IMG/VR virus record: IMGVR_UViG_2537562189_000012
Span: 1 to 47,704 of that record
Length of the DNA stretch: 47,704 bases
Source: a virus
Lineage: Duplodnaviria; Heunggongvirae; Uroviricota; Caudoviricetes
Direction: 5' to 3' (one strand)
Shown one piece after another: positions 42,201 through 45,200 of the stretch. The position numbers are program-made. Positions within the stretch are counted from its first letter, which is position 1. Each line of letters starts with the position of its first letter.

Positions 42201-45200
42201 ATCAGCGGACATATCAGTGCGAACTCGGGCACGCTCAATAATGTCGTGATAGCGGAGAACTGTACGATAAATGGCACGCTGAAAGCGGAGAACATTATTG
42301 GTGATCTTGTGAAATGTGCAGGGGTGGCTTTTCCGGTGGATGGTAGTTACCTTGCGAACGGTACACGAACGCTGACGGTGTATGACGATCACAGCTTTGA
42401 CCGGCAGATTATAATCCCGCCGATAATCTATGTCGGGTCAAAACAGGAATCCCGTACCAGTAATGACATCTGGACAGAGTGCTTCCTGCATGTTGATCAG
42501 AACGGACGCCGGATTTATTCCGGCAGGTCAGTGACAGAGCCGGGAATTTTCAGCGGGATCATCGATATGCCAGCCGGTCATGGTCATATCACCCTGAGTT
42601 TTACCGTAAGTTCACGACGTCAGAACGGGAGTTTTGGCAGTTCACGTATCAGTAACCTTCAGGCGATAGTGGTGAAGAAAAACAGCGCGGGGATCAGCAT
42701 CCGCTGAACATCGCGCCCCGGGATTGCCGGAAGGAGACAAAAACCGTACAGTATGCGCGGGTGCCTTTGGCTGATGGCCGGAGGGAACACCTGAAGGCCG
42801 GATGTGAAAAGGCCCCGGACAAACATTCATGTTTAACCCGAGGCCTGACTTTCGATCTTCAGCAAATTGAAGGTTAGCGCCTCTCCGTAAAAGGAGCAAG
42901 CGTTTATGTCGCAAAAACCGTTAAAAACCACCGTGATTTGTATCACGGTAGTGCTCATTATCTGGATCACCCACACTTCACTGTGCGAGTTCCGGTTCCG
43001 GATAGCGGGCGCGGAGATTGCGGCGTTCTTACAGTGTAAGCAGTAAGAAACCGTGGCGGGGGAGAATATCCCCCGCCGACCGGTTGCTGAGGGTGGTCAG
43101 CCGGATGGCACCGTTTTAACACCAACAAACCACAAATTTTACCGCAGGCCGGGAAACCGGTACTGCGGTTTTTTTATGGGGGAAATCCATGACAGTCAGA
43201 ATATCGGGTGTGCTGAAGGATGGTACGGGAAAAGCGGTACCGGGATGCACGATAGAGCTGAAAGCGCGCCGCACAACGGAGACGGTGATTGTCACCACGG
43301 TGGCGTATGGTCAGCCGGGGGAAACCGGCAGTTACAGTATGGATGTTGAGCCGGGGTTGTACCGGGTGACGCTGAACACGGAAGGGTACGCGCCGTCATA
43401 TGTGGGTGACATTCTGGTGAAGGCGGATTCTGCACCGGGAACGCTGAATAAATTTCTGATGGACCTGGAAGACGCACAGTATTACCCGAAAGCCCTTGCA
43501 GAGCTGGAAGCGGTGGCAGCGGAAATCCTGAAACGTGCGGAAGCGTCAGCGGCGAGTGCGGAGGAGGCAAAAAAACGGGCAGAGAATGCGCGGGGACCGA
43601 AGGGGGATAAGGGGGACACCGGGCCGCAGGGTATTCCCGGGCCAAAAGGCGATACCGGCGAGCGGGGGCCAAAGGGTGAGCGTGGTGAGACAGGACCACA
43701 GGGGCTTCAGGGTGTGAAAGGTGAACGGGGAGAGAAGGGCGAAAAAGGCGAGCCGGGAGGGCCGGATGCGACGACGGCACAGAAGGGAATTGTGCAGTTA
43801 AGCAGCGCAACGGACAGTGATGATGAAACGAAGGCAGCCACCCCGAAAGCGGTGAAAGCGGCAATGGACAAAGCGGACGGATGCCTGGAGAAAGCGAAAA
43901 ACGGTGACGATATCCCGGATAAGGTGAAGTTTCTGAACACCGTGGGAGCAGCCAGAGTATACGGGCGGGACATTCATACGGAGACCGGTGAATGGACCAC
44001 GAGTGAGTTTGTGGCCTGGCTGAAAGAAAAGGGGGCATTTGACCAGCCTTACTGGATGATGAAGGCATCACTGCTTGCGGAATTTAATAAGGTCATCACG
44101 GATGTCGGACCGGGAAAACTCAATCTGGGAGGCTGCGCCATTGAGGTGATGGGGACGTATAACGCAGCCATAGTCCGGGTCACCATCGGCGAATACGGTG
44201 GCGATGGTTTTCTGAACGGCACGGTCTGTACCTGTACAGTTTACGGAGACACACAACGTTTTCACTGGCGGGTGGATTACAGCACAAAAAACAAGCCCAC
44301 AACAGCAAGCCTGACAGTAAATGGCTGGGAGCGTGATGAAGTAACCGGTCGTTTGCGGCAATGGGGCAGTATTGAGGTAAGTGAGGATGATGGTAAGCTT
44401 ATGACACAACACTCTATCCGTTTTCCTGTCGCTTTTCCGGTTGCTGCTCTGAATGCTCAGGTGTCTGCAGTGGGAGACCCCAACGTCATTAAGATGTATA
44501 CCCTGTCGAATCCGTCATTAGTGTCTGTGACTCTGATAACAGTCAGGGGATGCTACGGCAAGTTTTCATGGGAAGCGATCGGATACTGAGGGCATTGTAT
44601 GGAACAGTATGTTTTTTCACCGTCAGAGAATATGTTTTATCCCCTGTCCCTGCGGCCGGTTTATGAGGCAGCAGGGCGCTGGCCGGAAGACGGTATTGTG
44701 GTGGATTATGTGGTGTATAAAGTCTTTGCAGCGGATGCTGCACCGGCAGGTATGAAGCGGGGCGTCGGTGCGGAAAAAATGCCGGTCTGGGTGCCGGTAT
44801 CGGAGGAGGGCACGGAAACATGATGCATATCAGAAATTTTTCGTATTACACCCCGGCGGAGCCGGATGTTGCAGGCGCGATGTACCTGAAGTCTGAGGAT
44901 GGTCAGGACTGGTATGAGTGTCAGGCGTTGTTTTCGCCGGAGACGCTGAAGGTGGTGTATGACAGCCGGGGTGTGATTACGGGATACGGTAAGGACACTG
45001 CGTTACTGTGGCCGGTGAACCAGAGTGTGGCAGAAGTGCCGGATACCCCGGAGAACCGGAAAATTGACCTGAGCGGGCGCTGGGGTTTTGACGGGGAGAA
45101 AATCACGGACCTGCTGACCGCGGAGAAAGCGCGAGGGATGAAGGGCGATGAAATAAACGCGTGGCGTAATGCGATGGAAGCGGCGAACTACACGTTTGAG

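Follow-up and report, generated by a model that had tools for sequence, protein, structure and literature searches.

What fills the gap between the tip attachment gene J and the tail fibre gene of a lambdoid prophage? In the window analysed here (positions 1–47,704, 47,704 nucleotides, of the IMG/VR virus record IMGVR_UViG_2537562189_000012, a member of the Caudoviricetes), the J stop codon and the tail fibre start codon are separated by positions 42708–43188, and this gap houses a 46-codon open reading frame (ORF). Our analysis shows that 42708–43176, a 469-bp 'intergenic' interval, is wholly taken up by one functional unit that uses both strands. Probably, the unit is a self-contained type I toxin–antitoxin module of the hok/sok type, carried as a lambdoid prophage moron and lacking mok, in which the Shine–Dalgarno (SD) sequence of the toxin gene is gated by an RNA switch together with a Sok-like RNA. 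A sequence-only reading had noticed a Hok/Gef-like toxin at this place; on comparative sequence evidence, that observation is confirmed and its interpretation supported.

The centre of the module is the toxin gene:

42906–43046 (including the stop codon), plus strand: hok-family toxin gene, 46 codons plus stop, encoding the peptide MSQKPLKTTVICITVVLIIWITHTSLCEFRFRIAGAEIAAFLQCKQ.

The sequence-only reading had recognized this ORF but placed it one base low, at 42905–43045. As read from the sequence, the peptide has a single hydrophobic stretch at about residues 8–22 followed by SLCEFRFR...AEIAAF, which bears out the transmembrane helix and Hok/Gef signature claimed for it. The family placement likewise holds: the peptide matches the Pfam family HOK_GEF (PF01848) with 42.2 bits against a gathering cutoff of 22 (E = 6.1e-11; residues 10–44 on positions 8–42 of the 42-position profile) and phrog_251 of PHROGs ('MokW-like host killing', category moron) with 75.7 bits. 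All seven positions that are conserved in more than 80% of 1,264 Hok peptides (M1, C16, T18, L30, C31, E32 and E41 in the published logo) are present, here as M1, C12, T14, L26, C27, E28 and E37. A peptide identical at 44 of the 46 residues (96%), 79_1563, has been cloned and tested and is absent from the three non-toxic constructs among 45 (Escalera-Maurer et al., bioRxiv 10.1101/2025.08.07.668861). By analogy with 79_1563, which belongs to the set reported toxic on overexpression, the window allele (T24, Q46) may be toxic as well.

From viral and genome collections we gathered 83 related loci, 64 of them unique; structure conservation was scored on 28 diverse sequences, entropies on 52 unique relatives and the antisense promoter on 37 unique sequences. 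Within hok, the entropy is 0.41, 0.23 and 0.59 at codon positions 1, 2 and 3, respectively, and the low value at position 2 relative to position 3 indicates purifying selection. Third codon positions are nearly frozen in codons 1–5 and 36–46, with a mean of 0.22 bits over codons 34–46 as opposed to 0.86 over codons 5–33, which points to an RNA-level constraint acting on the coding sequence. One relative (L040, 1501) has a GTG start and is missing 21 nt of the leader.

The sense strand carries the following predicted elements:

42724–42752, plus strand: hok promoter; −35 TTGCCG (42724–29), 17-nt spacer, −10 TACAGT (42747–52).
42759–43176, plus strand: full-length hok-type mRNA of about 418 nt, beginning with GGGUGCC and ending at the terminator U-run.
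42759–42775, plus strand: tac element at the mRNA 5′ end, paired with fbi in the full-length form or with ucb in the 3′-trimmed form.
42809–42816, plus strand: ucb-like box AAGGCCCC; its partner is GAGGCC (42840–45) when the mRNA is full-length and tac when it is trimmed.
42878–42902, plus strand: anti-SD hairpin, in which GCGCCUCUCC (42878–86) pairs with the hok SD GGAG (42893–96) and the bases that follow.
43049–43085, plus strand: hairpin of the 3′ untranslated region (3′-UTR), directly 3′ of the stop codon, −25.8 kcal/mol.
43096–43112, plus strand: fbi element, core GGCACC (43107–12) plus an extension, paired with the mRNA 5′ end.
43141–43175, plus strand: Rho-independent terminator; hairpin 43141–43169 with a 12-bp stem, −21.6 kcal/mol, and seven U (43169–75).

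The promoter begins 17 nt past the J stop codon, and the 6 nt that separate its −10 element from G42759 match the TATAAT–6 nt–G spacing of K-12 hokC. All relatives, whatever their genomic context, retain the TAnnnT pattern of the −10. From G42759 onwards, the Rfam family RF01794 covers 42759–42917 end to end (model positions 1–157; 54.7 bits, E = 4.1e-11); this family bears the name 'sok', and in K-12 its consensus equals the hokC leader in the sense orientation, on the strand opposite annotated sokC. The other Rfam matches in the region were rejected as noise (ffh, 17.4 bits; Clostridiales-2, 16.1 bits; isrK, 14.8 bits; all with E above 1 and far under their gathering scores). The 418-nt transcript folds with a minimum free energy (MFE) of −184 kcal/mol, compared with −136.5 ± 6.5 for shuffled sequences (z = −7.37). 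The leader, which had been described as long, GC-rich and structured, is thus structured, as the fold attests, but not GC-rich (53%, with 52% for the window). The strong terminator described alongside it is present; it ends 13 nt upstream of the tail fibre start codon at 43189, is kept in J|stf-type relatives, is replaced by a different one in P2-type relatives and has no counterpart in those of Shiga toxin (Stx) phages.

These results bear on the simplest alternative, a chance ORF in an ordinary intergenic spacer. The gene has only 46 codons, and a consensus scan yielded no promoter for it, as a chance ORF would have it; the Pfam and Rfam matches (E of 6e-11 and 4e-11) refute the idea, and the fold (z of −7.4) and conservation with covariation in more than 60 loci speak against it too, so that its probability is practically nil.

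The conserved pairings describe a molecule with two alternative folds. In the MFE fold, tac and fbi form a 16-bp helix (42760–75 with 43096–43112), the lock described for the hok paradigm (PMC9841398). This helix is 92.1% paired in the 28 relatives, the entropy of tac is 0.00 bits over 42759–67, and the fbi core is invariant (0.02 bits). The fbi extension contains four pairs that have changed on both sides (GC:17/CG:11, GC:19/AU:9, CG:10/GC:9 and UA:11/CG:8), and the 3′-UTR hairpin is found in all relatives with GC↔AU and GC↔CG exchanges. Taken as a whole, the full-length structure is paired in 84.8% of alignment cells, compared with 39–50% when the partners are slid, and it contains 45 cells changed on both sides, compared with 17.2 ± 3.5 in shuffles (none of 500 shuffles reached as high a value). 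The alternative structure of the trimmed form is paired in 82.4% of cells, against 31–55% when slid; the tac/ucb helix is paired in 87.6% of cells and the anti-SD hairpin in 89.7%.

Folding predictions connect the two forms. When the 3′ end is cut at 43080, 43085, 43095 or 43106, tac moves from fbi to ucb, GAGGCC moves from ucb to a dcb-like box, and the anti-SD hairpin shrinks from 10 bp to 3 bp. With the end at 43100 the fold does not switch, and tac re-pairs with 43090–98. When 42807–63 is blocked, mimicking Sok binding, the 10-bp anti-SD hairpin returns. Consistent with these folds, opening the ribosome site costs less energy when the RNA is trimmed than when it is full-length or Sok-blocked; this holds for 18 of 19 relatives, with differences of 0.4–5.8 kcal/mol.

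The opposite strand and its target in the leader provide the second arm of the predicted control:

42871–42899, minus strand: predicted Sok-like promoter; −35 TTGCTC (42899–42894, over the hok SD), 17-nt spacer, −10 TAACCT (42876–42871).
42807–42863, minus strand: predicted Sok-like antisense RNA of 57 nt, comprising a 17-nt single-stranded 5′ tail, a hairpin (GGCCUCGGG...UCCGGGGCC) and UUUU.
42840–42883, plus strand: leader hairpin, the predicted Sok target, in which GAGGCC pairs with the dcb-like GCGCCUC; loop CUUCAGCAA.

A sok-like antisense promoter, which the sequence-only reading had anticipated in the leader, was found there as a conserved predicted promoter; with its terminator it forms a Sok-like unit homologous to the annotated SokC of K-12. 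Of the 37 unique relatives, 35 have TAACCT as their −10 and two have TATCCT; their −35 reads TTGNNN or TTTACT, and 34 of them have a 17-nt spacer. The +1 G (G42863), eight bases past the −10, is shared by 51 of 52 relatives. Starting at this G, the RNA would read 5′-GCUGAAGAUCGAAAGUCA, then the hairpin GGCCUCGGGUUAAACAUGAAUGUUUGUCCGGGGCC, then UUUU. It folds at −20.9 kcal/mol (z = −3.0); the plus-strand equivalent reaches only −15.4 kcal/mol because two G–U pairs become C–A mismatches. The locus thus appears to encode, opposite the hok leader, a cis-antisense Sok-like RNA with its own conserved promoter and terminator, whose expression is predicted.

The leader hairpin, the predicted target of this RNA, appears in the folds of the trimmed mRNA, with five pairs changed on both sides, and its loop CUUCAGCAA is complementary to the predicted 5′ end of the Sok-like RNA and contains a YUNR motif, present in the loop in 52 of 52 relatives. 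Loops of the YUNR type reportedly serve fast Sok recognition in R1, as Franch et al. are said to have found in 1999. Nowhere is the locus more variable than in the segment facing the Sok tail (0.95 bits, with 0.27 bits for the well-conserved flanking promoter). Such variability fits a specificity determinant, given that a single Escherichia coli genome can hold up to seven related copies.

We also searched the leader for a mok frame, as the sequence-only reading had suggested, and found none in the window: stops in three frames, at 42868, 42875 and 42888, lie between the Sok target and the hok AUG. Across the relatives, 46 of 64 have no upstream ORF overlapping hok, and the other 18 differ in start and frame; nor is there a conserved leader start codon, with no start column common to more than 20 of the 52 unique relatives. 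As a positive control, the same scan recovers the mok ATG at −57 in hokC and in an R1-like locus; a mok frame is present in R1, hokC and hokW. Because mok is absent or inconsistent across the relatives while the controls recover it, its absence is a property of the clade and not an accident of the window copy. Three candidate substitutes, ATG 42829 (13 codons), TTG 42867 (7 codons) and GTG 42761 (38 codons), were rejected, none having both an SD and a conserved start. A literature search, of incomplete coverage, found no hok loci described as lacking mok, and the preprint surveying Hok peptides states that mok and Sok were not analysed (bioRxiv 10.1101/2025.08.07.668861).

In the two loci with a mok ATG 57 nt upstream and in frame with hok, on the IncFII plasmid pMTY1886 (L004, 394–609) and at K-12 hokC (L090, 452–661), 'Mok' is Hok extended N-terminally. 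The pMTY1886 Hok coding sequence in PLSDB starts 57 nt downstream of the ATG that opens the tblastn match to the full 52-residue Hok.

A canonical hok/mok/sok arrangement would require a leader peptide that has a non-canonical start or is encoded by a short upstream ORF ending just before the hok SD, with hok translation dependent on this peptide's synthesis and Sok blocking that leader ORF. Two mini-ORFs are placed suitably: seven codons from TTG 42867 to TAA 42890, ending 3 nt ahead of the SD, and 13 codons from ATG 42829 to TGA 42870, under the Sok target. In R1, FASTBAC-Seq found that mok must be translated as far as the hok SD at the least (PMC9841398), and a ribosome arriving from upstream would explain how a start-codon helix that stays closed in all our folds (below) is ever opened. 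Neither mini-ORF has an SD, however, and their starts occur in only 7 (TTG 42867) and 17 (ATG 42829) of 52 unique relatives, within the general scarcity of shared start columns and behind the three-frame stops that precede hok; Stx-phage relatives have no start codon at either position. We therefore regard a hidden mok as improbable and return to control without it.

Since mok is missing, we propose that control acts directly at the hok ribosome site and not via a coupled leader peptide. By the R1 paradigm and our folding, the full-length mRNA would be stable and translationally inert. Slow trimming from the 3′ end would take off fbi, allowing tac to re-pair with ucb; GAGGCC would then re-pair with the dcb-like box and free the hok ribosome site of its anti-SD. 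As long as the short-lived Sok-like RNA is made, its 5′ end would bind the exposed loop of the leader hairpin and the anti-SD hairpin would re-form, and the duplex with hok RNA would, by analogy, presumably be cut by RNase III. If the supply of Sok were stopped or outrun, Hok would be made and the inner membrane depolarised. Possible triggers include loss of the prophage, shut-off of host transcription by another phage and late read-through from J on induction.

The broader form of this proposal concerns the clade whose peptides start with MSQK, comprising the J|stf loci of lambdoid prophages, the post-lom loci of Stx phages (including 933W and Sakai Sp5) and the ogr/int locus of a P2-like prophage. 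This clade may have dispensed with mok, such that the tac/fbi/ucb/dcb switch gates the hok SD directly through the anti-SD hairpin, and the Sok-like RNA acts by re-locking that hairpin, with decay of the duplex, instead of by blocking a coupled upstream ORF. We advance this idea tentatively, with slightly less than even confidence. The clade-wide lack of mok, shown at the sequence level, is the only departure from the known kind; its mechanistic consequence is conjectural. If the proposal is true, control in the MSQK clade follows a simpler regulatory logic within a textbook family. A clade that appears to run the hok/sok RNA switch without a frame mandatory in R1 offers a natural test of what mok is for.

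Several observations weigh against the proposed module and, in particular, against its direct control. Both RNAs are known from sequence alone, and the ends of both transcripts are inferred. The predicted promoters are weak by consensus, with 8 of 12 positions matched for hok and 6 of 12 for the Sok-like RNA, and the Sok-like terminator has only four U. A consensus scan of 42600–43300 for promoters and terminators returned no promoters and, as its only terminator, a minus-strand reading of the 3′-UTR hairpin; its thresholds were too strict for both promoters and both terminators, and homology and conservation were used instead, which is what the case for the Sok-like promoter is built on. The Rfam match falls just below its gathering score of 59. 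In the window itself, trimming lowers the opening energy by only about 1 kcal/mol, which lends weak support to direct control. An invariant 9-bp helix, joining the start codon region (42906–14) to 43018–26 in codons 38–41 (the EIAAF codons), stays closed in every modelled state, and in these models the entry of a ribosome without one translating mok would be left unexplained. At the protein level, the NCBIfam models score far below their cut-offs (HokA equivalog NF007290, 37.9 against 89 bits; Hok subfamily NF007279, 37.1 against 73 bits), and 79_1563, from which toxicity is argued, is a different allele. The peptide is only 30–38% identical to characterised Hoks (R1, W, C, E, PndA and B), which, with the low NCBIfam scores, makes it a divergent Hok/Gef branch, neither HokA, nor a close relative of the characterised chromosomal Hoks, nor an ortholog of a studied gene.

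Some of these points would also suit a decaying or silent remnant that has lost toxin expression, like several chromosomal hok loci of K-12, where hokC adjoins IS186. The start codon is sequestered in all modelled states, and two relatives are visibly damaged: in L041 (~1493–1640), a 1-nt deletion in the A-run of codons 3–5 frameshifts hok, and in L051, a tandem duplication within the 3′-UTR hairpin displaces fbi. The ORF is nonetheless intact in the window and in nearly all of the roughly 80 relatives, where it is under the purifying selection described above (position 2, 0.23; position 3, 0.59). Three prophage types have conserved the two promoters along with tac, fbi and the SD, and near-identical peptides of clusters 79 and 72 of the Hok survey belong to the set reported toxic. 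A remnant is accordingly very improbable.

What such a functional module does for the prophage is harder to narrow down, and its setting bears on the question. Its neighbours are:

39189–42707: J, the tip attachment gene, with seven J-specific Pfam domains.
43189–44589: tail fibre gene, with a Prophage tail fibre N-terminal domain (137.9 bits).

No terminator lies between the J stop codon (42707) and the hok promoter, and hok has the orientation of the late operon, so that late transcription in the sense direction would enter the module. This arrangement is consistent with a lysis helper in place of an addiction module: read-through from J would flood the cell with hok sense RNA and interfere with the convergent Sok promoter, and Hok would depolarise the membrane and advance holin-dependent lysis. 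In each of three prophage types, the module is found only within late or tail regions or at their end. For hokW-sokW, Sp5 release fell by half upon deletion, and mitomycin C raised the level of HokW (PMC8621323). That precedent, however, comes from a paralog with 35% identity and carries over only by analogy, RNA reading through from J would lack a 5′-terminal tac, and help with lysis is compatible with post-segregational killing or abortive infection. As an alternative to an addiction module, we consider it possible and, on balance, unlikely. The proposed module may pay off through abortive infection, through aid to lysis upon induction or, in cured cells, through post-segregational killing; sequence analysis does not separate these.

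The location also suggests how the module travels. Placement of the related loci at the J|stf junction holds even where the identity of the J C terminus is 47–72%; sister-type loci lie downstream of lom in Stx phages, and a third context, between ogr and int of a P2-like prophage, is represented by one relative examined outside the J/stf and lom contexts (L043). Occurrence in these three contexts argues that the module is mobile cargo with its own signals. A six-frame search with profile hidden Markov models found no second hok gene in the window. A parallel in design is a moron of the lambda type at the J/stf junction, lom, likewise an independent promoter–gene–terminator cassette between late tail genes; in phage lambda, we take lom to occupy the equivalent position between late tail genes. 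The lambda moron encodes an outer-membrane protein, whereas the cargo here is a type I toxin–antitoxin module.

Comparison with named systems places the locus within the hok/sok family. The R1 hok/mok/sok locus (parB) and its IncF relatives share the conserved C, T, LCE and E residues, a 5′ tac, an fbi in the 3′-UTR and then a terminator hairpin, together with ucb and dcb boxes that permit two alternative folds and a YUNR in the target loop. In an R1-like plasmid locus, the antisense promoter (TTGCGC-17-TATCCT) has its −10 in the dcb arm, where the window has TAACCT, and its −35 over the hok SD. R1 differs in its peptide (30% identity; 52 residues against 46), in its need for mok, which is absent here, and in being a plasmid stability locus as opposed to a prophage tail-region moron; fbi here, unlike that of R1, consists of a 6-bp core and a 6-bp extension. 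K-12 hokC/mokC/sokC (NC_000913.3) has a nearly identical mRNA 5′ end (GGGUGCUUGAGG versus GGGUGCCUUUGG). SokC resembles the predicted antisense RNA in its hairpin base GGCCUCGGGUU...CGGGGCU/C followed by a U-rich tail, and in length (59 nt, with 57 nt predicted here). The Sok 5′ end and the hok AUG are 49 nt apart in K-12 and 43 nt apart here, and in both loci the antisense −35 lies over the SD. The contrast again lies in mok: in-frame mokC starts 57 nt upstream, whereas all frames are stopped here; peptide identity is 33%.

The hokW-sokW system of Sakai prophage 5 (Takada et al. 2021, PMC8621323) is, like the window locus, a prophage-borne hok/sok in a lambdoid phage of pathogenic E. coli. 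It assists lysis and phage release after induction (PMC8621323) and is the only prophage Hok that we found with a demonstrated role. HokW differs in being a paralog of the HokD type, with 51 residues, 35% identity and an annotated mokW. These same differences, together with its different position in VT2-Sakai, led us to reject identity of the window gene with the published HokW. The VT2-Sakai record AP000422.1 contains two hok modules, hokW/mokW at 59818–59970 (minus strand) and one of the MSQK type at 46830–47224 (plus strand).

The closest relative outside the window's own cluster is the MSQK-type Hok that follows lom in Stx phages (933W L0129, VT2-Sakai H0145 and, in Shigella phage 75/02, 'MokW-like host killing'), which corresponds to cluster 72 of Escalera-Maurer et al. 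It has 78% DNA identity over 42723–43116 and 65% peptide identity, shares tac, fbi, the anti-SD and a Sok-like promoter and hairpin, and is also without mok; its peptide 72_1589 is in the set reported toxic (bioRxiv 10.1101/2025.08.07.668861). It differs in lying after lom in the short-tailed Sepvirinae, in having no terminator after fbi and in the sequence of the Sok-tail target. In these sister loci (Shigella phage 75/02 Stx, L002, 2860–2920; also 933W and VT2-Sakai), the next ORF, of 133 residues and unknown function, has its ATG inside fbi ATGGCACCC, and the hok 3′ lock therefore overlaps the start of that gene. The MSQK clade is thus present in the Shiga-toxin phages 933W and Sp5, in the latter beside hokW, the only prophage Hok studied so far. 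Because Sp5 carries this second, uncharacterised module, the published hokW deletion phenotypes were measured with a second module still present.

Prophages are known to be rich in hok genes. The toxin gene of the window is ordinary, already annotated and catalogued, and not new. That it was 'unannotated', as the sequence-only reading had it, is true of the ORF track only: RefSeq and UniProt annotate the same ORF, and it is represented in PHROGs. Public collections list the exact 46-residue peptide under the name 'Hok/Gef family protein [Escherichia coli]' for at least 1,000 contigs, and its family is the high-abundance cluster 79 of the Hok survey (Escalera-Maurer et al., bioRxiv 10.1101/2025.08.07.668861). 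A 701-bp region is present at full length in 119 of 5,426 complete E. coli genomes; in all of the top 20 matches, the locus lies between gpJ and a 'prophage tail fiber N-terminal domain-containing protein', and RefSeq annotates the ORF as Hok/Gef. The best E. coli match is 99.7% identical, with T24S as the peptide difference. The sequenced phage 1720a-02 carries the locus at 95.6% identity, labelled 'hypothetical protein'. A scan of a contig collection gave only six loci, from which we draw no conclusion on host range; three of the six, MSQK hok loci of the enterobacterial type, occur on contigs labelled Planococcaceae metagenome-assembled genome, Vagococcus sp. and Xanthomonas pisi (L005, L006 and L008), labels that probably reflect contamination or mis-binning, and the leader in L005 is masked by a run of N.

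Two further regions of the window deserve mention. A tRNA-Arg(tct) gene (18219–18295, plus strand) is followed, about 1.4 kb downstream, by a match to the small RNA STnc100 (19710–19921, plus strand; 151 bits, with a gathering score of 47), an order typical of the late-regulatory region of lambdoid or Stx-like prophages. On the other side of the module, 3′ of the tail fibre and DUF4376 genes, a 414-residue ORF (45900–47144, plus strand) ends in a YadA-like membrane anchor domain (57.9 bits) and resembles a cargo gene of the trimeric-autotransporter type close to the prophage end.

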